A stretch of 32,600 bases of DNA from NCBI GenBank assembly GCA_021823425.1, contig JAKANX010000001.1, positions 4,068 to 36,667 on the forward strand, in the 5' to 3' direction. The position numbers and the translations under genes were made by a program. The notes below the pieces were generated by a model. The model was not told the origin of the DNA, ran no database searches, and worked only from the letters and a program-made list of their open reading frames with translations. Source of the DNA: Candidatus Micrarchaeota archaeon (GTDB lineage Archaea > Micrarchaeota > Micrarchaeia > Anstonellales > Bilamarchaeaceae). Shown here in pieces: positions 1,435 through 18,264 of the stretch (positions are counted from its first letter, which is position 1; the number at the start of each line of letters is the position of its first letter).

Positions 1435-1446
1435 GGGTTTTTGTTT

Positions 1447-1977
1447 ATGATTCGCGGAGGGAAGGGAGGCAGAACGCCCCTAAAGCACGGCCTCCATTTT
1501 GAAAAGAGAACCGATTTTGCGACTGTTATTTCCAGAATTCATGGATACTCGGTTAAGGATGATTGTGTACTGTTCAAAGGAACGGATGTTGCCAGACTTT
1601 ACAAGAAGAATAAGCTCTACCGCAAACTTTTGGCTCCTATGGATGTGGGATATGAAAAATTGATTTCCAAGAAACTTCTACCCGACGACGCTGTGCTGGT
1701 TCTGGGAAACAAAACGTTGTTTATCGTTGAAACGAAATTCCAGACTGTCGCAGGATCTGTTGACGAGAAACTGCAAACCTGCGATTTCAAATTGAAGCAA
1801 TACAGGAAACTCATAAAACCTCTGCACATTGAAGTTAAGTACGTCTACGTCCTAAATGACTGGTTTAGGAAGAAGGAATACAAAGACGTTCTTGATTATA
1901 TTCGGTCAGTAGGATGCGACTACTTCTTCAACGAGCTTCCTTTGGGGTATTTGGGGCTCCCAATTCCTGACTATTAG
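1447..1977 (+). CDS. putative type II restriction endonuclease, PD-(D/E)XK-like, specificity unknown
   Basis: LLPDDAVLVLGNKTLFIVETKFQ gives PD, about 14 residues, then ExK. It converges on a Dam-family methyltransferase and shares its low G+C. First ATG is at 1447; the track starts at TTG 1441. No family was recognised by eye. Confidence 0.5.
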   Translation: MIRGGKGGRTPLKHGLHFEKRTDFATVISRIHGYSVKDDCVLFKGTDVARLYKKNKLYRKLLAPMDVGYEKLISKKLLPDDAVLVLGNKTLFIVETKFQTVAGSVDEKLQTCDFKLKQYRKLIKPLHIEVKYVYVLNDWFRKKEYKDVLDYIRSVGCDYFFNELPLGYLGLPIPDY

Positions 1978-2772
1978 CTCTTTTATTTTGCCACGTTTAT
2001 CTCCCTTGCAGTTTATCGCCCTGATAGCATAGACGACTTCCGGTGTGTATTCTGAGTAAAGATCCGATATAAGATCAGAGTATGAATTGCTGAGAAGCAC
2101 GTAGCAGCCCCGTGAATCCAGCGTTTTGTACGTTTTCATCAGTCTTTCCTGTTCTGTCTCAGAAAAACCCCCTCGCGTGTAATCGGTAAAATTTGAGGTT
2201 CTTGATATTGGCACATAAGGTGGATCAAAATATACCAAATCTCCTTTTCGGGCGTTTTTCAAAACTACGCTAAAATCGCCGCAATAAAGCTCGTCCTTCT
2301 GAAGCGCACGATGGGCAAGAATAAGATTTTGGCTGTCAAGAATTTTTGGGTTCTCGTATCTTCCAAACGGGACGTTAAACTCCCCTTTGGAATTAACTCG
2401 GTAAAGCCCATTGAATGCGGTTTTATTTAGATAAATAAAACGGGCTGCCCGCTCAACATTATTCATAGCTTTTGACGCCCGGATTTTGTAAAAAATCGTT
2501 TCATTATTTGCATATTTTGGCAATGAAAGTTCGGACATCAGCTCAAAAACATCGTTTTTAACAACGCTGTATGCGTTGATTAATTCCTCGTTAAGATCAC
2601 TCAGGTATGCCTTGGCTATTTTTTCTTCAGCCTCCAATCTGAAAAAAAATGCTCCTCCGCCCAAGAACGGTTCATGGTAATTGACGAATTCCGGCAAATC
2701 TTTTGTAAGCTCGTCAAGGAGTTGCCGCTTCCCGCCGGCCCATTTTACAAAAGGTTTTGCTTCGTCCAACAT
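1906..2772 (-). CDS. Dam-family (D12 class, alpha group) N6-adenine DNA methyltransferase
   Basis: N-terminal FVKWAGGKRQLL motif, FLGGGAFFF SAM-binding region and catalytic DPPY (VYFDPPYVP). Confidence 0.9.
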   Translation of the reverse strand: MLDEAKPFVKWAGGKRQLLDELTKDLPEFVNYHEPFLGGGAFFFRLEAEEKIAKAYLSDLNEELINAYSVVKNDVFELMSELSLPKYANNETIFYKIRASKAMNNVERAARFIYLNKTAFNGLYRVNSKGEFNVPFGRYENPKILDSQNLILAHRALQKDELYCGDFSVVLKNARKGDLVYFDPPYVPISRTSNFTDYTRGGFSETEQERLMKTYKTLDSRGCYVLLSNSYSDLISDLYSEYTPEVVYAIRAINCKGDKRGKIKELIVRNWEPQIPQRKLVEEVVASY

Positions 2773-2844: not shown

Positions 2845-3528
2845 CTAAATCTTGTCCAGCTTCTCCTTTATCTTCCCGATGTCCATCTTCGTGACAATGA
2901 GCGGAATCCTTTCCCTCTCCGAAATCTTGAGCGCGAGCTTGTCCACGTCCTCTATCCCGTGCAGCACGACCGCGCTCGGCTTTGATGTAGAAACCCTAAT
3001 CACGACCATCGGGCTCCTTCCAGTGCTCACTCCGGTGAATATGAACACTCTCTCAGAAACATTTCCGTACATGCGCGGGAAATAGGAGAAAGGCATGTCC
3101 AGTATCACTTTCAGCGAGTCTATGAGCGTGTATCCGTAGACCTGCTTGCTCTCCATCATGTCGTGGTTGGTAAGGATTTTCCCCTCAATTAGCGCCGCGA
3201 AGTCCTTTATGCTCATTCCGCGCGCGAACTCGTGCACCTCGAAGTAGTCCTCGACGTTCTTCTCGCCTTCGAGGAGCTTCTGGCTGATTGCGCCGCCCTT
3301 TGCCCGGTCCATTTCAAAGAGGGAGTTCACGAACCTTTTTATCACTCCTGTTCCGGGGCTCTTGCGCCTGTTCGCCTCGTAATCGCTGATCGTGGAGACG
3401 CTTATGCCGAGGTAGCGCGCGAGCTCCACCTGCGAGATGCTGAACACCTCCCTCCACTTCTTCATCGTCGCCCCGGCATCGTCGGAAAGGGATATTTCCC
3501 CTGCGATTTCCAGCTTGATTTTCTCCAT
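2845..3528 (-). CDS. XRE/Cro-type HTH transcriptional regulator with a C-terminal domain (resembles archaeal COG1395-type regulators)
   Basis: SQVELARYLGISVSTISDYEANRRKSP is a classic HTH_3 helix-turn-helix. Its start lies 2 nt after the upstream gene stop and is preceded by GGAGGT. Confidence 0.7.
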   Translation of the reverse strand: MEKIKLEIAGEISLSDDAGATMKKWREVFSISQVELARYLGISVSTISDYEANRRKSPGTGVIKRFVNSLFEMDRAKGGAISQKLLEGEKNVEDYFEVHEFARGMSIKDFAALIEGKILTNHDMMESKQVYGYTLIDSLKVILDMPFSYFPRMYGNVSERVFIFTGVSTGRSPMVVIRVSTSKPSAVVLHGIEDVDKLALKISERERIPLIVTKMDIGKIKEKLDKI

Positions 3529-3530
3529 GG

Positions 3531-5087
3531 TCAGTAAAACCTCCTGCTGCCCTCCAGCGCGAGAACCGAAGTTCCGGCCCCGCGCGCGATTCCGTAGACC
3601 GCCTCGCCCCAGCTTCCCATCTCCGAAATAAGGGCGGACTCGTCCAGCGAGCGCCTGTCCGCGACCTCAATTATCCTTGCAAGGTGCGCTTTAATTTCCT
3701 TTCCCTTGCCGCTCTCCAAAGCCATGGCCCGCTTGACGAGCAGCTTTTGCCCGGAAAGCTCCATTTTCAGCACGTCCGAGCCGCGGGCGACTTCCGTATC
3801 CTCCTCCAGGAGCGCGAGCCGCGGCCCTCCAGCGTACGATGCAACCAGTAGGATGGCGCCCTGCGAGCGCAGCTCCTTCCAAAAAGCGTTCTTTCCTCCG
3901 TGGAGGAAACCGGACGAGAGCGCAACCCATGCGAGCGTCCCGAGGCTCATGGAGACCTTTTCCGCCTGCACGGAGTAATCCTTTCCCCCCGTGAGCCTGA
4001 TTTTCCCGCCGTTGCCGAAATCCGCGCCCAGGCTTTCCAGGAACGCTATCGCGCCCTTATCCAGAGTGAAAACCTTTCCGGCCATGTTCTCGCACGCGTG
4101 GAAGAATTCCGAGAGCTCCAGCATCCTCCCCCCGAGGGGCGAGGCGCGCAGCGAGAGGAACGCGAGGTCCGCGCATGTCCTGAGGTGGAAGAGCGCCTCG
4201 GCCTCGTTCCCCTTCCCTTTTTCGTATTCGGCGCGCGCGAGCATGTAATTGATGTTGGCGAAGAATTCCGGGGAATGCATGGTCTTTCCGCCCATCTCGG
4301 CGTAAGCTCCGTTCCCCTTCGCGCACGAGAGCGCGAAAAACCCCGCGAATTCCCTGCCTTCCGGAAGGGAATTTTCCTCCACATATATCCCCGCGAACCC
4401 GGCAGCCGCAAAGGAGAGCGCCTTGGCGTCCTTTCTCTCCTCAATCCAGCCGTATTCCGCGTCAGGCCCCAGCGCGGAAACCAGGTTTCCCAGCGAGGGG
4501 CTGAACTCCCTGCTTCCGTAAACGTTCTTCCCGTACGCGTATGCGATAAGGAACTCCCTTCCCCCGACCGGCCACACGCCCTCCGTTATGGGAATCGAGA
4601 AAAGCTTCCTCCATCCCCCCCCGACCTTGATATGGCAGTTCGCGCTCTTCCCGTCGCCGTGCACAACCACCTGGGCTTCAAGCTCCCGCCCGCCCCCTGC
4701 CTTGGGCTTGAGGAGGGAAAACGCCTCCCCTTGCCTGCCGGGCTCGCGCGCGTCCCGTATCGCCTTTGAGAAATTCCCAGTTTTAACTTTCGCGAACCTG
4801 AATGCCGAAATTCCCGCCCCCGCAGCCGGCTCGCCTGCCGCCGCTGCGAGCGCCATCGCAAGTGGCGCAAAGGCGAACGCGCCCTTGGGCGTATACGCGA
4901 AATCCGAAAGAAGGCGCGAGCGGTGCGGGGACTCCTGCTGCGCCTCTAGGAACGCGGAAAAATTCTCCGCCGAGGGGACTTCGGACTTGCCCGGGCCCTC
5001 CGAGGGAATCGGAATCCCTATCTCCTCCTCCCGGAAGCCCAGTTCCTTCACGCGCCTAAGGATTGAAATCGAATCGTCAAAGTCCAT
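3531..5087 (-). CDS. hypothetical protein, 518 aa, no recognisable domain
   Basis: Long ORF whose codon usage and composition match neighbouring genes. Start trimmed to ATG 5087 (MDFDDSISIL), 4 nt after the upstream stop and preceded by GTGAT. The 62 codons upstream in the track overlap the preceding gene and are Arg-rich. Confidence 0.6.
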   Translation of the reverse strand: MDFDDSISILRRVKELGFREEEIGIPIPSEGPGKSEVPSAENFSAFLEAQQESPHRSRLLSDFAYTPKGAFAFAPLAMALAAAAGEPAAGAGISAFRFAKVKTGNFSKAIRDAREPGRQGEAFSLLKPKAGGGRELEAQVVVHGDGKSANCHIKVGGGWRKLFSIPITEGVWPVGGREFLIAYAYGKNVYGSREFSPSLGNLVSALGPDAEYGWIEERKDAKALSFAAAGFAGIYVEENSLPEGREFAGFFALSCAKGNGAYAEMGGKTMHSPEFFANINYMLARAEYEKGKGNEAEALFHLRTCADLAFLSLRASPLGGRMLELSEFFHACENMAGKVFTLDKGAIAFLESLGADFGNGGKIRLTGGKDYSVQAEKVSMSLGTLAWVALSSGFLHGGKNAFWKELRSQGAILLVASYAGGPRLALLEEDTEVARGSDVLKMELSGQKLLVKRAMALESGKGKEIKAHLARIIEVADRRSLDESALISEMGSWGEAVYGIARGAGTSVLALEGSRRFY

Positions 5088-5091
5088 CCAA

Positions 5092-6099
5092 TCACTTTTT
5101 TCCCAGCCTGAGCGCGTAAGCCGATGAGAACAGCGCGAAGTTGAGCGCCCCAGCGTCGCCGAAGCGCGAGGTGAACTTTTTCGCCGAAAGCAGGTAATCC
5201 GCCTGCACCGCCCCGGCGTCCAGCCCGAGCTTCCCCGCAATCTCCGCGATTTTTCCGAGCGCCTTCGCCGCAATCCTGGCCGCGGCGCGGTTCCACATCC
5301 CGTTGCGCATGAACGCGGGCGCGAGCATCGCGAAGAACAGGTATTGGGCCGCGATTCCCATCCTGCTCACCTCCGCCATCGCGCCGGACTTGTCCCCGCG
5401 CATGAGCGCATCCCTCGCCTTTGCGAAGGAAGCGTCGCCCAGCACCCTCTGGTAGAGCCTGAGAACCGCCATAATCTCGTTCTTTGCCGCAATCCCGAAT
5501 ATCCTCTCGTAATCGTCCCTCCCTAACCCCAGCGCGTTGCGTGCAGCCACGGACGCGGCCTCCTCCTTCTGCAGCAGCGCGTAGAGCGCGTCGGCGAGCT
5601 CTGGCTTCGCTGCCTTGCCCAGCACCGCGACTATCTCTTCGCGTCTCACCTCGCTTTTCTCTGACAATTCTATGATTTTTGCGAACTGCTGCTCGCCCAT
5701 GCGCTCCGCGTTCGCGTCCAGCACGGAAAGCGAATCCGCGCCCTTTTCCACGTCTCTTCGCAGCTCGAGGAGCGCGTTGAGCCTCTCCTCGGGCATTCCC
5801 ACCGACGCGTACGCGGAGAACGCGTCGCCCTCGGCCTTTCGCACGTCCTCCACCGCCCCCTCCTTGAGCGCCTTTTCCAGCAGGCCGAGAATCCGCTTCT
5901 CCTCCGTGTTCACGAGCATGCCCGTAATCCGCGCGTCAAACCTGTCCACGTCCTTCTCGCTCTTGGGGTTGCGCAGCGCAGCCTTCATTATGTTCCAGAA
6001 GTCGTTCGCGGCGCGCTCAAGCTCCTCGTCGCTCCGCATTATCCCGACCCGGAGCCGCCTCTCCTCCTTCCTCGCATCGGTGAACGCTGATTCGGGCAT
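5092..6099 (-). CDS. hypothetical alpha-helical protein, 335 aa, with a hydrophobic C-terminal third
   Basis: Start trimmed to ATG 6099 (MPESAFTD), which lies 25 bp from the centre of the TATA box at 6117-6131. The longer track ORF would overlap the divergent gene. Composition is E/A/L/K/R-rich and helical. Confidence 0.6.
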   Translation of the reverse strand: MPESAFTDARKEERRLRVGIMRSDEELERAANDFWNIMKAALRNPKSEKDVDRFDARITGMLVNTEEKRILGLLEKALKEGAVEDVRKAEGDAFSAYASVGMPEERLNALLELRRDVEKGADSLSVLDANAERMGEQQFAKIIELSEKSEVRREEIVAVLGKAAKPELADALYALLQKEEAASVAARNALGLGRDDYERIFGIAAKNEIMAVLRLYQRVLGDASFAKARDALMRGDKSGAMAEVSRMGIAAQYLFFAMLAPAFMRNGMWNRAAARIAAKALGKIAEIAGKLGLDAGAVQADYLLSAKKFTSRFGDAGALNFALFSSAYALRLGKK

Positions 6100-6116
6100 G
6101 CTAGGAAAATCAGGCG

Positions 6117-6131
6117 CTATATTTATAATTC
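6117..6131. promoter_or_regulatory. single shared TATA box for the divergent genes starting at 6099 (-) and 6151 (+)
   Basis: CTATATTTATAATTC is the only A/T-rich block in the 51-bp intergenic region. Its centre is about 25 bp from ATG 6099 and about 27 bp from ATG 6151, which fits leaderless transcripts in both directions. Confidence 0.5.
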
Positions 6132-6150
6132 TGGGATACAATTTCACAGC

Positions 6151-6855
6151 ATGGCCAAGAACGCCGAATTTTTCAGGAAGGACAGGATATCCACAGGTGT
6201 GGACGAGCTTGACATAGTGCTCGAGGGCGGCTACCCGAATCCCGGAACAGTGATGGTGCTCGGGCCCGCGGCGCAGGAGAAGCTCGCTTTCGCGTTCCAT
6301 TTCGCGTACGCCGGGATGAAGGAGGGCGAGAAGGTCGCGTACATCGCGCTGGACATGGGCCCCGAGGAAATAGAATCAAAGGCTGCATCGTTCGGTATGA
6401 ACTTCAAGAGCCACACGAACAAGGAGCTCGTATTCATAGACGCATATTCGCAGACGATAGGGACGAGGCCCGAGGGGCGCTCGGACATGTCCATTCCCGG
6501 GCCTTCCGCCCTCAACGACCTCTCGCTCGCGCTAAACGACGTTACGGCGCAGGCCGAGGGCAAGCGCATCCGCGTGATTTTCCATTCGCTCTCCACGATG
6601 AGCCTCTACTCCCCCCCGGAGACGGTAATCAAGTTCCTGCAGGTGATTCAGGGGAGGCTCAAGGGCGCAAACGCGACGAGCCTGTGGCTCGTGGACGAGG
6701 GCATGCACGACAAGAAAGTGACAACGGGCTTAGAGAGCCTCTCGGACCTGGTACTCACCCTCGCGGACAAGGACGGCGGGCACGAGCTCCGCATACCCAA
6801 CATCCCCATGCCGCTTTCGGTGCGCTCGGGCGCGGCAGGGCTGGAAATACTGTGA
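6151..6855 (+). CDS. KaiC/RecA-superfamily protein with degenerate Walker A and Walker B motifs (probable pseudo-ATPase)
   Basis: ISTGVDELDIVLEGGYPNPGTVMVLGPAAQEKLAFAFHFA aligns with the KaiC-like pattern ...GxxGxGKT.... Here the Walker A reads GPAAQEKL, so the second Gly and the Ser/Thr are lost. The Walker B position reads RVIFHSLS, with His in place of Asp. Confidence 0.7.
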   Translation: MAKNAEFFRKDRISTGVDELDIVLEGGYPNPGTVMVLGPAAQEKLAFAFHFAYAGMKEGEKVAYIALDMGPEEIESKAASFGMNFKSHTNKELVFIDAYSQTIGTRPEGRSDMSIPGPSALNDLSLALNDVTAQAEGKRIRVIFHSLSTMSLYSPPETVIKFLQVIQGRLKGANATSLWLVDEGMHDKKVTTGLESLSDLVLTLADKDGGHELRIPNIPMPLSVRSGAAGLEIL

Positions 6856-6885
6856 ATATCATGCTCTCAAGTGCGGAAGAGGCGG

Positions 6886-6940
6886 GTTCCCGTTTCGGGT
6901 TCGCGGTTTTGCCCAGAACGCCGGACCCTGGACACGGAAC
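6886..6940. repeat. heptamer-array palindromic element, copy A
   Basis: Plus strand: GTTCCC GTTTCGG GTTCGCG GTTTTGC (6886-6912). This directly abuts, on the minus strand, GTTCCGT GTCCAGG GTCCGGC GTTCTGG (6940-6913). It shares the 10-mer GTTTCGGGTT with copies B, C and D. Confidence 0.6.
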
Positions 6941-6957
6941 GGTCATGTGGTGATTTT

Positions 6958-7281
6958 GTGGCAGCTGACTTCAAGCAGGTTGTTGACGAGATGAAGGGCA
7001 AGGGCATAGAGACCGCGCTCGTGAAAAGGGACGGCGGCCTCGTGTATTCCACGTTCGGCATGGACGACCCGGCCCCGTACATTGCGCAGTATCTGGCGAA
7101 CAACGCCCAGCTCCTCATGGCGGAGATTGGCGACGACGCAAAGGAGATAGAGGTCGCGTTCGAGGACAACTTCATCGTGCTCATCCCCCTGGACGGCTAC
7201 ATCCTCGTGGGCCTCGTCAAGACGCGGGACGACAAGAAGGTTCTGCGCGGCTATGTGGATTCAATCAAGTCCATGTTTTAG
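6958..7281 (+). CDS. Roadblock/LC7 (MglB-like) domain protein
   Basis: ETALVKRDGGLVYSTFG...FEDNFIVLIPLDGYILVGLV matches the Roadblock/LC7 pattern and size (107 aa). GTG 6958 is preceded by GGTGAT and a 3-nt spacer, almost the same context as the korB start. Start codon choice is uncertain; alternatives are ATG 6871 and ATG 6991. Confidence 0.65.
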   Translation: MAADFKQVVDEMKGKGIETALVKRDGGLVYSTFGMDDPAPYIAQYLANNAQLLMAEIGDDAKEIEVAFEDNFIVLIPLDGYILVGLVKTRDDKKVLRGYVDSIKSMF

Positions 7282-7371: not shown

Positions 7372-8691
7372 ATGGACCCCGACAGCATCCTTTCCACGCT
7401 TTCAAAGCTGGGTTTCTACGCGGACGTACGCACCATTTCCGGCACTTCCTCCTCGGTTTCAAGCGAGGACGGAAGAATCACGGGAACGCAGGGCGGAGTG
7501 TCCGGAATAGGCGTGCGCGCCCTAATCGGCGGCAGTTTCGGATACGCGTGGAGCACGCGCATTTCAGATTTTCCGGATTTGCTAAAGCGCGCCGAGCGCC
7601 TCGCAAGGCTGAGCAAGGGCGACGCCTCGCTCGTTGAACTAAAGCCAGTGCAGGCCGAAACAGGAAGCCTCGCGCAGTTCCCGGACGCAGGAGAAAAGGT
7701 GGCTATGCTCAAGGAGGCAGGGAAGTTCGCGCTCTCCGAGAAATGCAGGAACGCCACGCTCTCGCTGCGCGACTCCAACCTTGAGAAGACATTCCTGAGC
7801 AGCGAGGGCGCACGCATAGTCCAGAAGGAAAGCTACGCCTATTTCGCGGCCACTTCAATAGCAAAAGAGGGCACGCAGATACAGAGAGGAATAGACAGGC
7901 TCGCCTCGCGCAAGGGATGCGTGAAAATGGATTTTTCCAAAATAGCCCAAAACGCGCGCGAGAGCGCAGAACGGCTTCTGAAGTCCGAGCCTCCGCCCAA
8001 GGGAAGGATGCCCGTGATAATGAACCCGGAAATGGCGGGCGTTTTTTCGCACGAGGCGGTCGGGCACGCGAGCGAGGGCGACAGCATAGTGGAGCGCGAG
8101 TCCGTTTTCGCCGGAAAATTGGGGCAGAAGCTCGGCAGCGAGCTGGTGAGCATAACCGACGACCCCACGTTCTCAGATTTCGGGCAGTACTTTTACGACG
8201 ACGAGGGCGCGAAGGCCGAGCCCGCCCCGATTATAGAAAAGGGGGTGCTCAAGGGCTACCTCCACTCCCGCCAGAGCGCATCCGCGCTCAATTCAAAAAC
8301 GAACGGCCACGCGCGCTCCGAAGGGTACGATTACGCGCCGATTGTGCGCATGTCCAACACCCTCTTCTCAAAAGGCAACAGCCCTGAGTCCGAGGTCTTC
8401 GGCGTAAAGGAGGGCATATACGCAATCGGGATGAAGGGCGGCAGCGTGGACATATTCAGCGGCGACTTCATGTTCGCGGCCAAGGAGGCCTACATGGTGC
8501 GCAACGGCTCCAAGGAGAAGCTGCTGCGCGACGTCACAATCAGCGGCAACATAATGGACGCGCTCGCGAACGTTGAATCCGTGGGCAAGGACTGGGGCAC
8601 GAGCCCGGGCTTCTGCGGCAAGTTCGGCCAGAGCGCTCCGGTGAGCGACGGCGGCCCGCACATCCGCGTTTCCGGGATAAAGGTAGGCTGA
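7372..8691 (+). CDS. tldD: TldD/PmbA-family metalloprotease
   Basis: HEAVGHASEGD is the TldD HExxxH metal site. The 439-aa length and the glycine-rich C-terminal region (GFCGKFGQSAPVSDGGPHIRV) also fit the family. Confidence 0.85.
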   Translation: MDPDSILSTLSKLGFYADVRTISGTSSSVSSEDGRITGTQGGVSGIGVRALIGGSFGYAWSTRISDFPDLLKRAERLARLSKGDASLVELKPVQAETGSLAQFPDAGEKVAMLKEAGKFALSEKCRNATLSLRDSNLEKTFLSSEGARIVQKESYAYFAATSIAKEGTQIQRGIDRLASRKGCVKMDFSKIAQNARESAERLLKSEPPPKGRMPVIMNPEMAGVFSHEAVGHASEGDSIVERESVFAGKLGQKLGSELVSITDDPTFSDFGQYFYDDEGAKAEPAPIIEKGVLKGYLHSRQSASALNSKTNGHARSEGYDYAPIVRMSNTLFSKGNSPESEVFGVKEGIYAIGMKGGSVDIFSGDFMFAAKEAYMVRNGSKEKLLRDVTISGNIMDALANVESVGKDWGTSPGFCGKFGQSAPVSDGGPHIRVSGIKVG

Positions 8692-8692
8692 A

Positions 8693-9247
8693 ATGGGAAA
8701 CTGGAACGTTTTCGATAAGTTCCTAGCAAGGCGCAGGCTCGCGCAAATCCTAATGCGCATTCCTCCGAATGCTTCGGTGTGCGACATAGGCTGCGGGCCC
8801 GGGGGCGCGCTGCTTTTTTCCATCCGCAACAGGATAAGAAAAGGGATAGGCATAGACCGCCGCGTGGATTCGGTAAAAGACGACAAGATAGAGCTTATGA
8901 ACGCGGACATAGACGGAAAGAGGCTTCCGCTTGAAGACAATAGCGTGGACTGCGTGATTTTCCTCGCCGTATTGGAGCACCTCCGCGAGCCCCAGAAAAC
9001 AATTGCGGAAATACGGCGCATACTCGCCAAAGGCGGCGTGCTGGTAATGACCACCCCTGCTCCGGCGAGCAAGCCCGTGTTGGAATCCCTATCGTCAGTT
9101 GGAATACTGGACAGGGACGAGATAATGGACCACAAGAAATACTGGAATAAGGGGGAAATAGAATCCCTCCTTCGCGCCTCCGGCTTTTCCGAAGTTGATT
9201 TCTCTTATTTCCAGTTCGGGCTCAACCAGCGCGCGGTTGCCAAATGA
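8693..9247 (+). CDS. class I SAM-dependent methyltransferase
   Basis: VCDIGCGPGGALL is SAM-binding motif I. It is followed by VDCVIFLAVLEHL and GGVLVMTTP, typical of the Methyltransf_11/25 type. The start is 1 nt after the tldD stop. Confidence 0.75.
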   Translation: MGNWNVFDKFLARRRLAQILMRIPPNASVCDIGCGPGGALLFSIRNRIRKGIGIDRRVDSVKDDKIELMNADIDGKRLPLEDNSVDCVIFLAVLEHLREPQKTIAEIRRILAKGGVLVMTTPAPASKPVLESLSSVGILDRDEIMDHKKYWNKGEIESLLRASGFSEVDFSYFQFGLNQRAVAK

Positions 9248-9249
9248 AA

Positions 9250-11304
9250 TCATTTGAGCTTGAACAGGAAGAACGCTCCGTTGCCGCCCGTATTCTGGAA
9301 CTGCGCCGATGTTGCGTACTGGTCCAGCTTTGCCTGCACGCCCTGCGTTCCCGCGCCCTTCGCGCATGAAACGTCAAATATCATGTATTGGTAGCCGTGG
9401 GCCTTCATGAAATCCGCGACCTCGGACGCGGTCCTGTTGAACGCCGTCTTCTTGAAATTCAGGTAATCGGCGTTCCACGGCTCCGAGAGCTTGTCAAACC
9501 CGGCTATTCGGGAATCCGGGGCGCATAACGGCATAACCTTGGTGTCCGCAGGCAGGGACATGAGGGAAACGTAGCCTGCGAGCTCCTCCTGCGCGCTCCA
9601 CATCGCTCCCGGGGGCCACATAGCGGTCTGCACTGCCATGCGCGGCTCTATGCTGGTGATGTAAAGGACGACGAACACGGCAAGCGCGGCAACTATCCTG
9701 AGGGCGCCCGAAGACGAATAGACCTCGAGCTTCCCCCCTTCCTCTTTCGCCCTGTACTCGCCTTCAGCGCCCTCGCTGTTCTTGGCCTTGAAAATGATTT
9801 CATTCTCGCCTTTTTCCAAAATGGAAATCGAGGAGAGCGCCTGCTTGTTGTCCGCGCTTTTAACTCCGCCGGAGATTGCGGAAAGGCTTCCCTGCCCATC
9901 GAACAAATGCGAATAGAATCTTTTGGGCAGCCTCGTGAACGCGTATGCCGCCAGCGCGGCCGCAGGCACCGAAAGGAAAACCCAGAACCTATGCGGGAAC
10001 AGCTTGAGCGGGAGCGCGTTGCCCTCGGTTCCCAATATCCCGATTATGAAGAACACGGCGAGGAAAACCAGGGTGGAATCCCATTTCCCCTTCCTCGCGT
10101 CATTTGCAATGTAAGCGAGCGCGAGCGCGTCCAGCAGGATTATCGCAAGCCCTATTCCCGTAGCCTGGTCTATCTTGCTTGCAGCTGGCGGGAATATGTA
10201 GTCGTCCAGCCCGTACACCACCCCCCCGGACGTGTCGTCGGTGCTCCCTCCCTGCAAAAATGAGCCTGAAAACCCGATTCCGGCGAAGAACTGCTCCTTT
10301 CCGAATTTCAAATACGCGGGGCCCCAGAACACTATGAACGAAAGGATAAGCCCTGCGGCCAGCGCAATGAAAATGTTCTTCGCAACCTCCCTGTTTCCCA
10401 AAGCCGCCTTGACGACAAGGAACGAAGCCGTTATGACGCCGAAAGTGACTGCGACCGAAGGCTGGGTAACCAGCACCGCAGCGACCGAAAGGACCGCGGC
10501 AGGAAGCATCTTCGCGTCCTTTTCCAGCCGCGAGAGCATTATGAAAGAAACTAGCATGAGCATTATCGCCAGCGTCTGCGACCATATGAAATGGCTCATG
10601 AAGCCCGGTATTGAGGCGACGAACAGCGCGGCAATTGCAGCGAGCCATCCTGATTCGGGAAGCGCCTCGCGCAGCCACACGTAGAGCGCCAGCACGGCCA
10701 GCCCCGCGAGAAGGGCGTTGAAGAATTTCATCGTTGTTTGCGTGGAGTCGTTGAGCTCCCTCAGCACCCCGAGGAGGATGTCAAAGGCAGGGGGGTAGGG
10801 CTCCAAGTACCACCTGTCGAATTCCGCTATGGAAGGCGCGACCGGCCTGTGCCCAGAGAAAGTGTGCGCCACCTGGCTCACCCCGAGCGCATGCACCCAA
10901 GGGTCGTCGTCCTCCAAATAAGGGTATGAAAAAGCCCCGGAAAGCAGTATTCCGAACATGAGGACAGCTGCAAGCACGCCCACTGCGTCGCGCGCGTCCA
11001 CGTTCTCTAGCACCATTTCCCTAATTCCGCCGCTGGTTTTGGCGTGCTTCTTCTCCCCGCCCATGCGCTCCTGCTTTTCATCCACCAATTTGAGCCTCGC
11101 TGCAGCGCCTATCGCGCCGAGGGCGAGGAAAACCAGCCAATGCAGCGGAATTGAGATTACCGAAAAGAAGGTCATCGCCACAACGAGCGCGGGAAATCCG
11201 AAAAGCGGCGCCTTCCACCCCCGTTCGCCCGTTACAGCGTAGCCGTACAGATAAGCCGAAACCAGAAGCCATATGACCGAGAACAACAAATAGCCCACCC
11301 TCAT
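9250..11304 (-). CDS. polytopic membrane protein, probable GT-C-fold glycosyltransferase (ArnT/PMT-like) with a C-terminal soluble domain
   Basis: Many hydrophobic helices. An acidic loop, YPYLEDDDPWVHA, follows an early TM segment, as in GT-C enzymes. The gene sits in a glycosylation cluster. No WWDYG motif is present, so I do not call it AglB. Confidence 0.5.
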   Translation of the reverse strand: MRVGYLLFSVIWLLVSAYLYGYAVTGERGWKAPLFGFPALVVAMTFFSVISIPLHWLVFLALGAIGAAARLKLVDEKQERMGGEKKHAKTSGGIREMVLENVDARDAVGVLAAVLMFGILLSGAFSYPYLEDDDPWVHALGVSQVAHTFSGHRPVAPSIAEFDRWYLEPYPPAFDILLGVLRELNDSTQTTMKFFNALLAGLAVLALYVWLREALPESGWLAAIAALFVASIPGFMSHFIWSQTLAIMLMLVSFIMLSRLEKDAKMLPAAVLSVAAVLVTQPSVAVTFGVITASFLVVKAALGNREVAKNIFIALAAGLILSFIVFWGPAYLKFGKEQFFAGIGFSGSFLQGGSTDDTSGGVVYGLDDYIFPPAASKIDQATGIGLAIILLDALALAYIANDARKGKWDSTLVFLAVFFIIGILGTEGNALPLKLFPHRFWVFLSVPAAALAAYAFTRLPKRFYSHLFDGQGSLSAISGGVKSADNKQALSSISILEKGENEIIFKAKNSEGAEGEYRAKEEGGKLEVYSSSGALRIVAALAVFVVLYITSIEPRMAVQTAMWPPGAMWSAQEELAGYVSLMSLPADTKVMPLCAPDSRIAGFDKLSEPWNADYLNFKKTAFNRTASEVADFMKAHGYQYMIFDVSCAKGAGTQGVQAKLDQYATSAQFQNTGGNGAFFLFKLK

Positions 11305-11364
11305 TCAGATATCAATCAAAAGTATTAAAAATCGTCGTCGCCAACCCTTCCTAAGGTATTCTTC

Positions 11365-12024
11365 ATGTCAATAGCAATACTCCTGCCCACGCTTAACGAG
11401 GAGGAGGGCATCGGCGGGATGATAGACAAGGTTCGGGAGGTTTCCAAGGGCGAGTGGAACGTCTACGTGGTGGACAGCGGCAGCACGGACAAGACCGTGG
11501 AAATCGCCAAGGCGAGGAAGGCGAACCTCATACATCTGGAGAAGAGGGGCAAGGGAATAGCCGTGAAAAAGGCGTTCTCCGCGATTTCCGAGGACTTTTT
11601 GGTGCTAATTGACGCGGACATGAGCTATTCGCCCGAGGACATAAACTGGGTGCTCGGCCAGCTGAAGGCGTGCGACGTGGTGCTAGGCAGCAGGTTCCGC
11701 GGCCACATAGAGAAGGGCGCGATAAGCGGCATGAACATCTTCGGCAACTCCGCGCTCACGGCGATGGCGAACGCGCTCTACGGCAAATCCGTCTCAGATG
11801 TGTGCACGGGGATGTGGGGCTTCACGAAAAAGGCGTACAAGTCCATGGAAATAGACGCCCCGCACTTTGAATTGGAGGTCAATTTCTTCACCCAAGCTGC
11901 AAAGCTGGGGCTCAAGCTCTGCGAAGTCCCCATTTCCTACCAGAAGCGCGCCGGAACGTCAAAGCTGGGGATAGGCGACGGGTTCAAGATAGGTACTTAC
12001 CTCATAACCCACAAGCTCAAGTGA
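11365..12024 (+). CDS. GT2-family glycosyltransferase (dolichyl-phosphate sugar synthase-like)
   Basis: ILLPTLNEEEGIG, VVDSGSTDKT and LIDADMSY (DxD) are typical GT2 N-terminal motifs. Confidence 0.8.
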   Translation: MSIAILLPTLNEEEGIGGMIDKVREVSKGEWNVYVVDSGSTDKTVEIAKARKANLIHLEKRGKGIAVKKAFSAISEDFLVLIDADMSYSPEDINWVLGQLKACDVVLGSRFRGHIEKGAISGMNIFGNSALTAMANALYGKSVSDVCTGMWGFTKKAYKSMEIDAPHFELEVNFFTQAAKLGLKLCEVPISYQKRAGTSKLGIGDGFKIGTYLITHKLK

Positions 12025-12028
12025 TTGC

Positions 12029-12943
12029 ATGGACGTTTTGGTAACAGGGGGCGCCGGATTCATAGGCAGCCACCTCACAGAGTCGCTCCTTGCAGCGGGC
12101 CACCGCGTGACCGTGCTTGATTCATTTGCGAATTCCAAAAGGGAGAGCGTGCCCAAGGGCGCGAAGCTCGTTGAATGGGACGTTTCCAGCGCGCCGGAGC
12201 CCGGAATGCTGGACGGAATTGAAACCGTGTTCCACCTCGCGGCTGACCCTGACGTGAAAGGGAGCGCGCTCCGGCCGAGGGAGAATTTCGTCATAAACGC
12301 AGCCGGGACGTTCAACATGCTCGAAGCGTGCAGAAAATCAGGCGTGAAAAGCTTCGTTTTCACCTCCTCCTCGGTTGTTTACGGCGAGGCCAAGGTGCAG
12401 CCCACCCCGGAGGATTATCCCCCCTCGCCGATTAGCAACTACGCCGCGGGAAAGCTCGCGGGCGAGGCGTACTGCATGAGCTACAGCCACACCTACGGAA
12501 TCAAATCCACGGTTTTGCGCCTCGCCAACATATTCGGGGAACGCAGCACGCACGGCGTGATGTTCGACTTCTACAAAAAGCTCAAAGAACGGCCTTCAAG
12601 GCTCGAAATTCTGGGAAACGGGAAGCAGAGCAAGTCCTACCTCCACGTTTCTGATTGCGTCTCCGGAATGCTCGTTGCCTTTGAAATGCAGAAATCGCAA
12701 TCCGTCGTATTCAACATAGGAAGCAAGGAGAAGCACACCGTGGACGAAATCGCCCAAACGCTCTCCCTTGAGCTGGGCTGCTCGCCCCAGCTCGTGCACC
12801 AAGGGGGAGCGCGCGGCTGGGCAGGGGACGTGCCGGAAATGCTCCTTTCCACCTCTAAGCTAGAATCCCTCGGCTGGAAGCCGAAAATAGCGTTCGGGGA
12901 GGGCGTGAGGCGCTACGCCGCATGGCTTAAAAAGCATTATTAG
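12029..12943 (+). CDS. NAD-dependent sugar-nucleotide epimerase/dehydratase (extended SDR)
   Basis: VTGGAGFIGSHL Rossmann motif, TSSSVVYG, and catalytic YAAGK (YxxxK). Confidence 0.85.
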   Translation: MDVLVTGGAGFIGSHLTESLLAAGHRVTVLDSFANSKRESVPKGAKLVEWDVSSAPEPGMLDGIETVFHLAADPDVKGSALRPRENFVINAAGTFNMLEACRKSGVKSFVFTSSSVVYGEAKVQPTPEDYPPSPISNYAAGKLAGEAYCMSYSHTYGIKSTVLRLANIFGERSTHGVMFDFYKKLKERPSRLEILGNGKQSKSYLHVSDCVSGMLVAFEMQKSQSVVFNIGSKEKHTVDEIAQTLSLELGCSPQLVHQGGARGWAGDVPEMLLSTSKLESLGWKPKIAFGEGVRRYAAWLKKHY

Positions 12944-12964
12944 GCTATATCTAACTGCAATTCC

Positions 12965-13022
12965 GTTTCCAGTTTCGGGTTTCCGGTTTTGGCCGCGGAA
13001 CCCGGAACGCGCAACGCAAAAC
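12965..13022. repeat. heptamer-array palindromic element, copy B, immediately upstream of tRNA-Val
   Basis: Plus strand: GTTTCCA GTTTCGG GTTTCCG GTTTTGG (12965-12992), then CC. Minus strand: GTTTTGC GTTGCGC GTTCCGG GTTCCGC (13022-12995). Confidence 0.7.
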
Positions 13023-13029
13023 GCCCATC

Positions 13030-13102
13030 GGGCCCGTAGTCGAATGGCTAAGACGCTACTCTCACACAGTAGAGATTCGCGGTTCAATCCCGCGCGGGCC
13101 CA
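13030..13102 (+). tRNA. tRNA-Val (anticodon CAC)
   Basis: Manual cloverleaf fold. Acceptor stem GGGCCCG/CGGGCCC, anticodon stem CTACT/AGTAG, loop CTCACAC (U33, CAC, A37), T arm CGCGG-TTCAATC-CCGCG, discriminator A. No CCA is encoded. Confidence 0.9.
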
Positions 13103-13120
13103 AGTATTCATAACCTGGCC

Positions 13121-13190
13121 GTTTCCGGTTTCCTGTTTCGGGTTTCGCAACTGAAAACGGTCTTGCTCAGGAAAACCGGAAACCACAAAC
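13121..13190. repeat. heptamer-array palindromic element, copy C, downstream of tRNA-Val
   Basis: Plus strand: GTTTCCG GTTTCCT GTTTCGG GTTTCGC (13121-13148). Minus strand: GTTTGTG GTTTCCG GTTTTCC (13190-13170), plus an isolated GTTTTCA (13158-13152). CCGTTTCCGGTTTCCTG is near-complementary to CAGGAAAACCGGAAACC. Confidence 0.65.
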
Positions 13191-13206
13191 TTTAACGGTG
13201 ATTACC

Positions 13207-14115
13207 ATGAACATTCTCGTAACCGGGGGCGCGGGCTTCATAGGCTCGAACCTCACGGCAGCGCTTCTAAAAGAGGGCCACCACGTCACGGTGCTGGACA
13301 ACTTCCACTCCGGAAGCGAGCAGAACCTGGAAACCCTGAACGTGAAACTCGTACGGGGCGGCGCAGGCGACTTGGACCATTTGGACGTGGGAAAAGTGGA
13401 AGCCATTTTCCACCAAGGCGTCTATTCCTCCTCGCCCATGTACAAGGAGAACCCCCGCCTCGTCGCAAAGGCCATCGACGACTTCATAGTGCTGCTGGAA
13501 TTCGCGAAAAAGCACAGCGCGCCGGTCGTGTTCGCGTCCACCTCGTCCATGTACAACGGCATCGCCCCCCCGCACAAGGAGGACATAATCCCGAAAGTGA
13601 CCGACTTCTATACTGAAGCGAGGATTGAGATGGAGCGCATGGCCGAGCTCTACCACAAGCTTTACGGCATGAAGATAATCGGGCTGCGCTATTTCTCCGT
13701 CTACGGCCCGCACGAGAGGAGCAAGGGCAAGTACGCCAACCTCGTTTCCCAGTTCATCTGGTCCATGGTGAAAGGGGAGGCGCCCGTGATTTACGGCGAC
13801 GGCTCCCAGACGCGGGACTTCACCTACGTTGACGACATAGTGCGCGCGAACATGATGGCCATGAAATCCAATGTGAAATACGGGATGTTCAACGCGGGCA
13901 CCGGAAGGACATACACCCTGAACCAGCTCGTGGAAATGCTGAACAGGCAGATGGGCACCTCCATTAAGCCGCAGTACATAGAGAACAAGATAAAGAACTA
14001 CGTGCAGGCGACGCTCGCGGATACGTCAAAGGCAAAGGCAGAAATCGGCTTTGAGGCCCAAATCACTCTTGAGCAGGGCATAGGCAAGCTCGTGGCCCTT
14101 GAGAAAGGGAAATGA
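13207..14115 (+). CDS. NAD-dependent epimerase/dehydratase family protein (extended SDR) with an atypical YxxxR at the catalytic position
   Basis: VTGGAGFIGSNL and ASTSSMYNG are present, but the expected YxxxK reads YTEAR. ATG 13207 is preferred over the track start GTG 13198. Confidence 0.8.
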   Translation: MNILVTGGAGFIGSNLTAALLKEGHHVTVLDNFHSGSEQNLETLNVKLVRGGAGDLDHLDVGKVEAIFHQGVYSSSPMYKENPRLVAKAIDDFIVLLEFAKKHSAPVVFASTSSMYNGIAPPHKEDIIPKVTDFYTEARIEMERMAELYHKLYGMKIIGLRYFSVYGPHERSKGKYANLVSQFIWSMVKGEAPVIYGDGSQTRDFTYVDDIVRANMMAMKSNVKYGMFNAGTGRTYTLNQLVEMLNRQMGTSIKPQYIENKIKNYVQATLADTSKAKAEIGFEAQITLEQGIGKLVALEKGK

Positions 14116-15272
14116 TGGACCTCATCATAACCTACCCCTTCATAGTCCAGAAAGGGGGCGCGGACAGGCTTCTATTGGAAATAGCCAAGAAGTTCGATCC
14201 CGTGATTCTTACGTCTTATCACAAGAAGAACTCGTCTTTCCTGGAGCTCGAGGAATTCGACATCCGCCAAATCAAGAGGCCGCTTTTCGAGAGCTCGCTC
14301 TTCATGATACGCGACGACGTGAAGCGCAACCTCATACTCTCCGGGATGAAATACTACGACTACAAGATAAAGGAGGACTACGACGCGATTTGCGCGTTCC
14401 TTCCGGGCCACTGGATAAGGAACAAGAACGAGCGCGTGTGCTGGTACTTCCTCGGGCCTTTACGGACGGCGTTCGATCTTTACGAGGAAAAGGTTTCCAG
14501 GCTCCCGGTCCATAAGCGCTTGCCCATGGACGCGGCCCTCAGCGTCTATCGGCACATGGAAAAGCAGATATGCCCGAAAATAGAGAAGACCGTTTCAGGC
14601 TCCCCTTACATAAACGTGCGCGACTCCGAATTCATACGCAAATACATACAAAAACCGCTGGACACAATCATTCCTCCTGCGGTGGACCACAAGGAGTTCA
14701 GGAACGAGGGCTACGGGAAGTATTTCTTCTACCCCTCGCGCGTTGTCCCGGAAAAGAGGTTCGAGTACGCGATAGACGCGTTCCGCGAATTCAGCAAAAA
14801 AGAGAATGGCTGGAAGCTCGTGCTCTCCGGTTTCCTGCTGGACCGGCCCCGCGAGCGCGCGTACGCGGAAAAGCTCAAGGAGCGCGCGCAGGGCCTTGAC
14901 GTTGAATTCCATTTCAGCCCCCCTGACAAGGAGCTCAAGTCCCTTTACGCCAACTGCCACGCGGTCCTGTTCTGCGCGGTGAACGAGGACTGGGGCTTCA
15001 TACCCTTGGAAGCGATGGCTGCGGAGAAGCCCTGCATATCCGTGAACGAGGGCGGCCCCGTATATTCCATCATTGACGGAAAAACAGGATTCCTAGTGAA
15101 CTCAACCGAGGAAATGGCGCAGAAGATGCTCTACCTCGCCCAGCACCCCGGCGAGAACGAGAAAATGGGCAAGGCGGGCAGGAAAAGGGTGCTGGAGAAC
15201 TACACGTGGGACGTGTTCGCGGACAGGATGAAAACCGCGTTCCGGGAGGCCGCGAAGGGAAGGGATTTCTGA
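14112..15272 (+). CDS. GT4-family glycosyltransferase, paralog 1
   Basis: C-terminal [26 protein letters not shown] is the GT4 E-x7-E region. Clear paralog of 15274-16434 and 18348-19496. ATGA overlap with the upstream stop. Confidence 0.85.
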   Translation: MMDLIITYPFIVQKGGADRLLLEIAKKFDPVILTSYHKKNSSFLELEEFDIRQIKRPLFESSLFMIRDDVKRNLILSGMKYYDYKIKEDYDAICAFLPGHWIRNKNERVCWYFLGPLRTAFDLYEEKVSRLPVHKRLPMDAALSVYRHMEKQICPKIEKTVSGSPYINVRDSEFIRKYIQKPLDTIIPPAVDHKEFRNEGYGKYFFYPSRVVPEKRFEYAIDAFREFSKKENGWKLVLSGFLLDRPRERAYAEKLKERAQGLDVEFHFSPPDKELKSLYANCHAVLFCAVNEDWGFIPLEAMAAEKPCISVNEGGPVYSIIDGKTGFLVNSTEEMAQKMLYLAQHPGENEKMGKAGRKRVLENYTWDVFADRMKTAFREAAKGRDF

Positions 15273-15273
15273 A

Positions 15274-16434
15274 ATGGACGTTTTGCTCTTCTACCCGGCG
15301 ATATTCCAAAAAGGCGGGGGCGACCGCGTAGTCCTTGAATTGGCAAAGAGGTTCAACGCCCCTATCTACACTTCAATTTACAGGAGGGAAACCTCGTACA
15401 ACGAATTCCGCGAGCTTGACGTGCGGGAAATCCGCTCCCCGCTTTTCGAAAAGCCATTCTTCTTCCTCAAGAAAGACTTCGTGTCCTACGCGCTCGCGAC
15501 CGCTGGAATGAAATTCCTCAATTACAAGGTCAGGGAGGATTACGACGTGATAAACGCGCACGCGAATCCCTCGAACTGGATAAGGAACAGGAACGAGCGC
15601 GTGTGCTGGTATTTCTACAGCCCGGTTCGCGGGGCCTACGACCTGTACAAGCAGAAGGTCGCGCACCTGCCCATCCACCAGCGCGCCCTCAAGAACGCGA
15701 TGTTCTCGTGGTACAAATTCTGGGACAGGAGGCTGGACCCGAAGATAGAGAAGACCGTCTCCGTCTCCCCGTACGTGAACGTGCGCGACGAAAAATTCAT
15801 CTCCGAATACGTGCGCAAGCCCGTGGAGCCCATACCCCCGGGCGTGGACCACAGGAAATTCAGGAACGAGGGCTACAGGAAATACTTCCTCTACCCTTCG
15901 CGCATAATCCCGGAAAAGAGGTTTGAATACGCCATAGAGGCGTTCAGGGAATTCTGCAGCAAGCAGAAAGGCTTCAAGCTCGTAATCGCGGGCTTCCTGC
16001 CCTACGGCGACCGGGAGCAGAAATACGCGCAAAGCCTTCGCGAGCTTTCCAAGGGCCTCGACGTGGAATTCAGGTTCAACCCCCCGGACAGGGAGCTCAA
16101 GTCCCTTTACGCCAACTCGTACGCGGTGCTGTTTTCCCCCATGAACGAGGACTGGGGATTAGTTCCTCTGGAAGCCATGTCATCCGAGAAGCCCTGCATC
16201 TCGGTGAACGAGGGCGGGCCCACTTACACTATACACGACGGCGAGACCGGCTTCCTGGTGAATTCGCCGCAGCACATGGCGCAGAAAATGCTCTATCTTG
16301 CGCAGGACCCTGCGGAGAACGAGAAGCTCGGCAGGGCGGGAAGGAAAAGGGTGCTAGCCAACTACACGTGGGAAATATTCCTCAGCAAGATGGAAAAGGC
16401 GCTCAGGGAGGTTGCGAAGGAAAAATCGAAATGA
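15274..16434 (+). CDS. GT4-family glycosyltransferase, paralog 2
   Basis: [26 protein letters not shown]. Colinear with paralog 1 over its full length (386 aa each). Confidence 0.85.
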   Translation: MDVLLFYPAIFQKGGGDRVVLELAKRFNAPIYTSIYRRETSYNEFRELDVREIRSPLFEKPFFFLKKDFVSYALATAGMKFLNYKVREDYDVINAHANPSNWIRNRNERVCWYFYSPVRGAYDLYKQKVAHLPIHQRALKNAMFSWYKFWDRRLDPKIEKTVSVSPYVNVRDEKFISEYVRKPVEPIPPGVDHRKFRNEGYRKYFLYPSRIIPEKRFEYAIEAFREFCSKQKGFKLVIAGFLPYGDREQKYAQSLRELSKGLDVEFRFNPPDRELKSLYANSYAVLFSPMNEDWGLVPLEAMSSEKPCISVNEGGPTYTIHDGETGFLVNSPQHMAQKMLYLAQDPAENEKLGRAGRKRVLANYTWEIFLSKMEKALREVAKEKSK

Positions 16435-16435
16435 T

Positions 16436-17275: not shown

Positions 17276-17289
17276 ATTCGCCCGCAGGA

Positions 17290-18264
17290 CTAAACCTTTC
17301 CTCCTTCGGAAATGAGCTTCACGTCCGAATCTACCATGATCTTGACGAGCTCCTTGAAGCCGGTCTTGGGCTTCCAGCCGAGCAGCTTCTCGGCCTTGGA
17401 CGCATCCCCGACGAGCTCCTGCACCTCGGCGGGCCTCATGAACCTTGCGTCGGTCTTGACGTATTTCTCATAGTCCTTGACGCCGATTGCCTCGAACGCC
17501 GCGATTACGAAATCCCTGACGCTGTGCGTGTGCCCGCTCGCAATCACGAAATCCTCGGGCTGCTTGTGCTGGAGCATCCTCCACATCGCGTCCACGTATT
17601 CGGGCGCGAAGCCCCAGTCCCTCTTCGCGTCCAGGTTGCCCAGCGTAATCGCCTTGTCCAGCCCGAGCTTTATCCTCGCGACCCCGTATGTTATCTTCCT
17701 CGTGACGAATTCAATCCCCCTTCTCGGGGACTCGTGGTTGAACAGTATCCCGTTCACTGCGAACATGTTGTAGCTCTCCCTGTAATTCACCGTCGCCCAG
17801 TATCCCATCATCTTTGCGAATCCGTAGGGGCTCCTCGGATGAAAAGGGGTATTTTCATTCTGCGGCACTTCCCTCACTTTCCCGTAAAGCTCGGAAGTGG
17901 AAGCCTGGTAGAATTTTATCGCGGGGTTGCAGTTCTTTATCGCCTCGAGCGCCTTCACCACGCCCAGGCCGTCAATCTCGCAGGTGCTCTCGGGCAGGTC
18001 CCACGAGCTGCCCACGAACGACTGTGCGGCGAGGTTGTAGAATTCGGAAGGCTCGGCCTTCTTGAGCGCCCTGTAAATGGAATAGCTGTCCGTAACGTCC
18101 CCGTAGATTACCTCAATCTTGTCCTTGAGGTGCTCAATTCTCTGGGTGTTCGGCGTGCTCGTCCTGCGGTTGAACCCGTAGACCTTGTAGCCCTTTGAAA
18201 GAAGCAGTTCCGCGAGATAGGAGCCGTCCTGCCCCGTTATCCCCGTGATGATTGCGCTTTTCAT
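17290..18264 (-). CDS. gmd: GDP-mannose 4,6-dehydratase
   Basis: [27 protein letters not shown]...[14 protein letters not shown] is the characteristic Gmd N-terminus. Start trimmed to ATG 18264 (MKSAIITG). Confidence 0.9.

Follow-up and report, generated by a model that had tools for sequence, protein, structure and literature searches.

Two undescribed protein families encoded with an XRE-type regulator in a conserved gene trio of Micrarchaeia

What do three closely packed genes do in the chromosome of a tiny symbiotic archaeon of the Micrarchaeia (DPANN), and does the restriction-modification (R-M) cassette that adjoins them point to a role in defence? The genes occupy positions 2845 to 6099, on the minus strand, of a 32,600-nucleotide stretch of contig JAKANX010000001.1 (assembly GCA_021823425.1; the whole stretch is called 'the window' below). 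They encode a protein of 335 amino acids (aa), one of 518 aa and a helix-turn-helix (HTH) protein of 227 aa, referred to here as g335, g518 and HTH227. An initial annotation of the window had left the first two unassigned and had suggested a five-gene module, possibly defensive, formed with a divergent gene pair upstream. We find that g335 and g518 represent new families and that the trio itself, judged by its gene order, is the conserved unit; we tentatively favour a regulatory role. DPANN genomes contain many orphan genes (PMC6393860), and few of these 'dark matter' genes have as clean and testable a context as this operon.

The transcription unit and its promoter

The trio and its expression signals are as follows:

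5092-6099, minus strand: g335, 335 aa, orphan, predicted to be all alpha-helical and soluble
3531-5087, minus strand: g518, 518 aa, orphan, alpha/beta, rich in alanine and glycine
2845-3528, minus strand: HTH227, 227 aa, XRE-type HTH with a C-terminal alpha/beta domain
5091-5095, minus strand: Shine-Dalgarno (SD)-like motif GTGAT, overlapping the g335 stop codon, 3 nucleotides (nt) before the g518 ATG
3539-3544, minus strand: SD-like motif GGAGGT, 10 nt before the HTH227 ATG
6118-6130, minus strand: TATA-like box AATTATAAATATA, within the 51 nt (6100-6150) that separate g335 from the divergent gene

The window DNA is 56-62% GC, so that overlapping spurious open reading frames (ORFs) are common and a long ORF by itself is little proof of a gene. 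We consider the three genes to be real because about ten lineages have orthologues that agree with them in length and start (34-55% identity), because their GC content at third codon positions (GC3, 0.77-0.83) equals that of housekeeping neighbours such as POR and TldD, and because the structural model of g335 is a confident one.

The spacers measure 4 nt between g335 and g518 (5088-5091) and 2 nt between g518 and the HTH gene (3529-3530), which agrees with the coordinates and the two internal motifs given in the initial annotation. Five lineages show a motif of the GGTGA type before the g518 start; it is kept in the related loci L001, L003 and L008, with GGGGGA in L006. A scan of the minus strand from 6160 to 1801 located two TATA-like boxes only, at 6129 (before g335) and at 2809 (before the Dam-type methyltransferase gene of the R-M cassette), and none before g518 or the HTH gene. 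The box in the g335 gap has no further copy in the window, and no intrinsic terminator was found by a scan of the coding strand of the trio. Given the short spacers, the conserved SD-like motifs, the single upstream box and the lack of a terminator, the trio looks like one transcription unit served by a single conserved TATA-like promoter, as had been supposed.

The start codon of g335 lies about 25 nt downstream of the box AATTATAAATATA, and that of a KaiC-like gene, on the opposite strand, about 27 nt away from it; the distance to g335 suggests that the 5' leader is very short or absent. The core of the box, AATTATAAAC/T, is conserved in L001, L003, L004 and L008. The idea that one TATA box is common to the operon and to the divergent pair fits both the 51-nt gap and the presence of the box in orthologous loci, and a central conserved box in so short a region would be compatible with a shared bidirectional promoter with very short or absent leaders. 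A related box, AATTATACAC, lies upstream of g335 in L012, where the KaiC gene is absent, and the box therefore serves g335 first.

Two undescribed families and a conserved regulator

The first protein, g335, contains 18% alanine, 11% leucine, 9% glutamate and 9% arginine. Its AlphaFold2 (AF2) model (pLDDT 81.7, pTM 0.73) is all-alpha with 19 helices, and the C-terminal third has a hydropathy index (GRAVY) of +0.22 and a net charge of +10. Composition, model and hydropathy thus bear out the helical protein with a hydrophobic C-terminal third that had been read from the letters. No transmembrane segment was found in g335 or in g518. A word-indexed search of 5.8 billion proteins returned nine relatives of g335, all from Micrarchaeia or uncultured archaea. 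No match at E<=1e-3 was obtained for the g335 model when it was compared with the PDB and BFVD using Foldseek. On the evidence of this model, the fold may be new.

The second protein is rich in alanine (13.7%) and glycine (12.4%) and, as had been noted, its sequence carries neither a P-loop nor HExxH. The C-terminal 90 aa or so are strongly conserved (RGSD..K.E..VKRAM..ESGKAKEIK.H...GSWGEAVY...RFY-COOH). An exhaustive HMMER profile scan of 1.84 billion cluster representatives identified 17 relatives, and the word-indexed search five. The AF2 model of g518 was built from a five-sequence alignment, before the deeper family was found, and Foldseek retrieved nothing for this poor model from the PDB at E<=1e-3. 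Weaker hits in the Foldseek searches of the two models, to terpene synthases, ARM repeats and tape-measure proteins (E~0.5-1, TM<0.27), were rejected.

Neither protein matched Pfam, NCBIfam, PADLOC or PHROGs, searches of PDB sequence profiles at E<=10 gave chance hits only, and no family recurred when Pfam was searched at E<=1 with all nine members of the g335 family and with 14 of the g518 family. DUF6574, to which four of the nine g335 members gave a hit at E~0.09, was dismissed as noise. Profile, exhaustive and fold searches therefore leave both proteins as unassignable as the initial annotation had found them, with no housekeeping family among the results; g335 and g518 are previously undescribed families for which no library or database name was found.

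Two candidate assignments for g518 were rejected. A Roadblock-like identity for the confidently modelled domain at residues 335-478 was given up after an hhalign comparison with the Roadblock-like neighbour (probability 0.2%) and a Foldseek search in which MglB came at rank 45 (E 2.9). A PP2C-like identity, considered because of the motifs 'HGDGK' and 'RGSD', was dropped because Pfam gave no signal for PP2C and the sequence lacks the remaining metal-binding motifs.

A marginal hhalign similarity (probability 33%, P 4.6e-4, in 45 comparisons) connects residues 136-184 of g335 (5548-5694) with residues 466-509 of g518 (3561-3692). The common segment, about 45 aa long, pairs a three-helix part of g335 with the conserved C-terminal helices of g518 and has the pattern …AKIIEL.EK.EV.KEDV…LG….E.A.A.Y…, which is HTH-like by eye. 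As a lead only, this helical similarity would fit two partners with a shared ancestral element.

The third protein was correctly recognized as an XRE-type HTH protein: HTH227 matches HTH_3 (PF01381) at residues 23-65 with an E-value of 2.9e-9 and 37.3 bits (cut-off 23). The helix-turn-helix spans residues 19-67 approximately and is followed by an alpha/beta domain of about 160 aa. PDB profile matches are to HTH domains of the XRE/HipB/MBF1 type only, and those in PADLOC are to generic HTH entries (HTH_VI at 3e-6, RmrA and capH). The C-terminal domain corresponds to no Pfam, NCBIfam or PDB entry and shows at most a weak Rossmann-like similarity in the PDB; none of the family, structure or defence libraries searched assigns a function to HTH227.

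Halostagnicola and Natrinema encode full-length homologues of HTH227 (identity 36-39% by tblastn or alignment, coverage 96-98%), which places HTH227 in an archaeal family of broad distribution. This family is probably COG1709, a pan-archaeal predicted regulator. COG1709 has been listed as a 'regulator' among the proteins specific to all Archaea (PMC1852104).

On a Halostagnicola plasmid (NZ_CP007058.1; L010, 5983-9553) the homologue adjoins an archaea-specific SMC-related protein and RdfA, the rod-determining factor. It was considered as DdfA and rejected, since DdfA is a HalOD1 protein that rarely clusters with RdfA or the SMC-like protein (PMC10869688). The RdfA/SMC context is probably coincidental; that of the second haloarchaeal homologue is unrelated.

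Gene order, neighbours and possible function

The trio was seen in L001/L002, L003/L004, L006/L007, L008, L009 (a strain 99.8% identical to the window), L012, L013/L014, L015 and the P0025 contig, that is, in about ten Micrarchaeia lineages. Where the sources of relatives are named, they are given only as Candidatus Micrarchaeia, Candidatus Micrarchaeota or 'uncultured archaeon'. Profile scans of genome contigs and of metagenome contigs yielded one locus each, and P0002 and the HTH protein P0035, both on 3480-bp contigs, probably derive from a single contig. The gene order is thus conserved outside this genome, and nothing that the initial annotation had named as contrary to its proposal was encountered.

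What surrounds the trio varies. One subclade (L001/L002, L003/L004, L006/L007, L008 and L009) has the order TldD, Roadblock-like gene, KaiC-like gene and then, divergently, g335, g518, the HTH gene, a variable spot and POR. In L013/L014 the gene for MetRS lies upstream in the same direction and overlaps g335 by 4 nt, so that g335 overlaps the MetRS stop codon (L013, 3594-3597; L014, 1795-1798); the trio is probably co-transcribed there with this core translation gene. L012 has deoxyhypusine synthase and a 160-aa membrane protein upstream, with LonB and a TldD/PmbA-like gene downstream. On the P0025 contig, which carries the most divergent g518 (27% identity), the gene upstream, divergent in orientation, encodes at least 328 aa. 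The conserved unit, as far as gene order can tell, is the trio and not the five-gene set.

The flanking genes are of housekeeping type (POR, IF-2, TldD, MetRS, deoxyhypusine synthase, LonB). Because of these flanks, and because its GC3 matches that of its neighbours, we regard the trio as native. It is chromosomal, vertically inherited and restricted to Micrarchaeia. The rates of change within the locus differ (identity to the window proteins, across lineages):

HTH227: 80-91%, the slowest-evolving gene of the locus
POR beta: 81-84%
KaiC-like protein: 60-75%
Roadblock-like protein: 63-68%
TldD: 65-69%
g518: 34-49%
g335: 37-50%

Our tentative proposal is a cytoplasmic complex of g335 and g518 that acts together with HTH227. 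Translational coupling and joint conservation are our reasons for proposing the complex: the two proteins would be made together and would assemble. The constant place of the HTH gene behind g335 and g518 is our reason for proposing a partnership with the regulator, in which the complex would be a lineage-specific partner of HTH227 and would act as its sensor, its co-regulator or its controlled output. HTH227, a putative DNA-binding regulator, would probably feed back on the operon promoter. In the subclade of the window, the inactive-KaiC/Roadblock-like pair shares the promoter region and would probably be co-regulated. The proposal can be taken further: g335 and g518 would represent two new folds and would form a heteromeric complex, the obligatory Micrarchaeia partner of an archaea-wide HTH regulator (presumably of the COG1709 type), serving as sensor or effector and wired, in one subclade, to an inactive-KaiC/Roadblock scaffold through a bidirectional promoter. 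This extended form we think unlikely.

Several observations count against a partnership of the three proteins. In L008 the gaps within the trio are 82 and 33 nt. In L003 the HTH gene is split from g518 by a 3.8-kb insertion with both genes intact, and coupling between g518 and the HTH gene is therefore not obligatory. The haloarchaeal homologues of HTH227 stand alone in unrelated contexts with no g335 or g518 partner. Synteny is broad in these small genomes, where POR, IF-2 and TldD also stay nearby, so that adjacency by itself says less about functional linkage than it does in a larger genome. The model of g518, finally, has a pLDDT of only 45.8 and reaches about 70 or more only at residues 335-478 or thereabouts.

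A different explanation we rate as rather doubtful: g335 and g518 may form a lineage-specific structural or housekeeping complex (concerned, for example, with cell organization, support of the envelope or of host contact, or the handling of RNA or protein) that shares a transcript with HTH227 and has no regulatory tie to it. The solitary state of the HTH family in Halobacteria is consistent with this, as are the housekeeping neighbourhoods (including the 4-nt overlap with MetRS) and the single-copy, vertically inherited state of the trio genes; the basic, mildly hydrophobic C-terminal third of g335 could mediate association with a membrane or with nucleic acid. However, the HTH gene directly follows g518 in all loci but one, even where g518 identity falls to 27-34%, the two proteins lack transmembrane segments, and no fold match to a known structural protein was obtained.

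The divergent neighbours bring in a second alternative:

6151-6855, plus strand: KaiC-like gene, a single KaiC/RecA-superfamily domain, neighbour of the trio in the subclade of the window only
6958-7281, plus strand: Roadblock/LC7-like gene, downstream of the KaiC-like gene, start uncertain

The KaiC-like protein matches PF06745 (1.7e-22; 80.4 bits, cut-off 26.6) and DUF7504 (3.4e-11), and its PDB sequence matches are KaiC, PH0284, PH0186 and SSO2452. In place of the catalytic Walker A motif GxxxxGK[ST], it has GPAAQEKL aligned to RecA GPESSGKT, and the position expected for the Walker B motif (hhhhD) reads, by eye, IFHSLS. These degenerate motifs are kept in all orthologues, which makes the label 'pseudo-KaiC' of the initial annotation a fair one; the protein is probably an inactive ATPase, a scaffold or pseudo-enzyme. 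The 'Roadblock' label fared less well. Robl_LC7 (PF03259) matches two of the four orthologues of the small protein, at best with an E-value of 0.0016 and below the curated cut-off, but the window protein itself has no Robl_LC7 match and no PDB sequence match.

Further profiles that match the KaiC-like protein are PAXNEB (Elp4-like), with 33.6 bits and thus over the cut-off, and the haloarchaeal DUF7504/DUF7090; as far as profile scores can, this suggests that inactive single-domain KaiC/RecA scaffolds are a widespread class. The Roadblock-like ORF can be read back as far as a GTG at 6871, which is 15 nt past the stop codon of the KaiC-like gene. The gene call in L009 uses an ATG at 6991 (96 aa), 33 nt inside the start at 6958; the orthologues are 106 aa long, and a start that gives this length would leave a gap of about 100 nt that is absent in relatives (9 nt in L001).

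In the second alternative all five genes would form a signalling module, by analogy with the KaiC-centred signal-transduction hubs proposed for archaea: the inactive KaiC-like and Roadblock-like proteins would be scaffolds, g335 and g518 input or adaptor subunits, and the HTH protein the output. The pair does adjoin the trio in six lineages of one subclade, arranged divergently around the 51-nt promoter region with its one conserved TATA-like box, and PMC5847659 and PMC4858521 present inactivated KaiC-like domains as known signalling parts and describe KaiC-like ATPases with predicted alpha-helical partners. To this extent the gene arrangement behind the five-gene module suggested by the initial annotation holds. 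Elsewhere it does not: the trio has other upstream neighbours in L012 and L013/L014, where the pair is absent beside it, and on the P0025 contig, where it is probably absent too. Furthermore, hhalign does not relate the Roadblock-like protein to g518, the Roadblock assignment is below threshold, and the adjacency could simply be inherited, as TldD and POR are also syntenic. We judge a five-gene module to be improbable.

The remaining suggestion, a defence role, arose from the genes on the other side of the trio:

1441-2772: R-M cassette, inserted between HTH227 and POR and separate from the operon
1906-2772, minus strand: Dam-type methyltransferase (TIGR00571 dam, 1.6e-86), with its own TATA-like box at 2809
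1441-1977, plus strand: small PD-(D/E)XK-like ORF with a weak PDDEXK_11 match

The 3' end of the operon does border an acquired cassette, as had been stated: its GC content is 42% and its GC3 0.43-0.50, compared with a GC3 of 0.77-0.84 for the native neighbours. It was found in the window and in the 99.8%-identical strain only, and is not at this spot in L001, L006 or L013. The spot is empty in L006 and L013 and holds a SAM-methyltransferase-like gene in L001 (9083-9793). In L003 the cargo (3657-7147 and 8155-9836) consists of two genes without assignment, a PDC-S01-type AAA_14/DUF4143 ATPase (PADLOC, 5e-118), a Gp49/HigB-like gene and AbiEii. The spot beside the trio appears to be a place in Micrarchaeia chromosomes where insertions recur. 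Low GC3, occurrence only here and in the near-identical strain, and differing cargo in relatives mean that R-M adjacency is no evidence of a defensive operon.

Within the cassette itself, the Dam gene and the PD-(D/E)XK-like ORF converge and overlap by 72 nt. The latter has a TTG start directly after the POR-beta stop codon; the gene caller used for the sister strain chose an internal methionine, giving 112 aa.

Other searches are equally negative for defence. PADLOC-DB 2.0 contained no family for g335, g518, or the KaiC-like and Roadblock-like proteins, PHROGs gave no match to g335 or g518, and no relatives of these two were found on plasmids, phages or IMG/VR contigs. The patchy or mobile distribution of defence systems is not seen; the trio keeps a fixed position among housekeeping genes in about ten lineages and has native codon usage. 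Nor does the trio resemble a type II toxin-antitoxin system, as HTH227 is 227 aa long, is the most conserved gene (80-91%) and has a family that reaches Halobacteria, unlike fast-turnover antitoxins, and no toxin family was found in g335 or g518 using Pfam, NCBIfam and PADLOC. Thus, although XRE-HTH proteins often regulate defence or toxin-antitoxin modules, HTH227 has generic PADLOC matches, and the adjoining spot holds an R-M cassette here and the PDC-S01-type ATPase, Gp49/HigB-like and AbiEii genes in L003, all of these neighbouring defence genes are insertions that differ between lineages, and an anti-virus or toxin-antitoxin system with the XRE-HTH protein as regulator or antitoxin is highly improbable. 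On its sequence and distribution, the trio is not a defence or mobile system, of which it shows no sign. This removes a false lead: since the R-M cassette was inserted at a site whose content varies, the locus does not belong among candidate defence systems.

Related systems and a neighbouring glycan cluster

The nearest known kind, at the level of the system, is an archaeal KaiC-like or HTH regulatory module. Signalling modules of archaeal KaiC-like ATPases, including inactivated KaiC (iKaiC) domains, were described by Makarova, Galperin and Koonin in 2017, as cited in PMC5847659 and PMC4858521. The likeness lies in a single-domain protein of KaiC/RecA fold with dead Walker motifs beside small helical or unassigned genes and an HTH gene, the whole being cytoplasmic and non-enzymatic in appearance. 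Here, however, only one subclade links the KaiC-like gene with the trio, and g335 and g518 match by sequence none of the partner domains described (KaiB-like, Death-like, MEDS, HalOD1). HTH227 itself is like XRE-family regulators with a C-terminal effector domain in combining HTH_3 with a further domain of about 160 aa and in its strong conservation; the family differs in that its members are third gene of an operon, behind two orphans, only in Micrarchaeia.

A second comparison, made by description only, is with the 'dark matter' families of DPANN, for example cls.004340, an alpha-helical DPANN-specific family in a housekeeping context (PMC6393860). Like these, g335 and g518 are lineage-restricted, without an assigned function, vertically inherited and placed among housekeeping genes, but they are narrower (9 and 17 relatives) than families that are DPANN-wide. 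With type II R-M and defence islands the operon has in common that it adjoins a Dam-type methyltransferase gene and a PD-(D/E)XK ORF; it differs in that this adjacency is a strain-specific insertion and the operon itself carries no defence hallmark.

If the three proteins do act together, the operon would offer an entry to the function of the HTH227 family and to a cell biology specific to Micrarchaeia. If, in addition, the complex were an obligatory partner of the regulator, the operon would represent archaeal regulatory machinery of a new kind and offer a handle on the role of a universal regulator.

Beyond TldD, the window contains a large glycan-biosynthesis cluster (8693-19496). It includes a SAM methyltransferase, a 684-aa protein (9250-11304) without a Pfam match that appears by eye to be hydrophobic and multi-spanning, and a GT2-like gene whose L001 counterpart matches Pfam Glycos_transf_2. 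There are also three paralogous GT4 glycosyltransferases and four genes of the NAD-dependent epimerase/dehydratase family, one of which is a GDP-mannose 4,6-dehydratase; a tRNA-Val gene (13030-13102) lies in the middle of the cluster.

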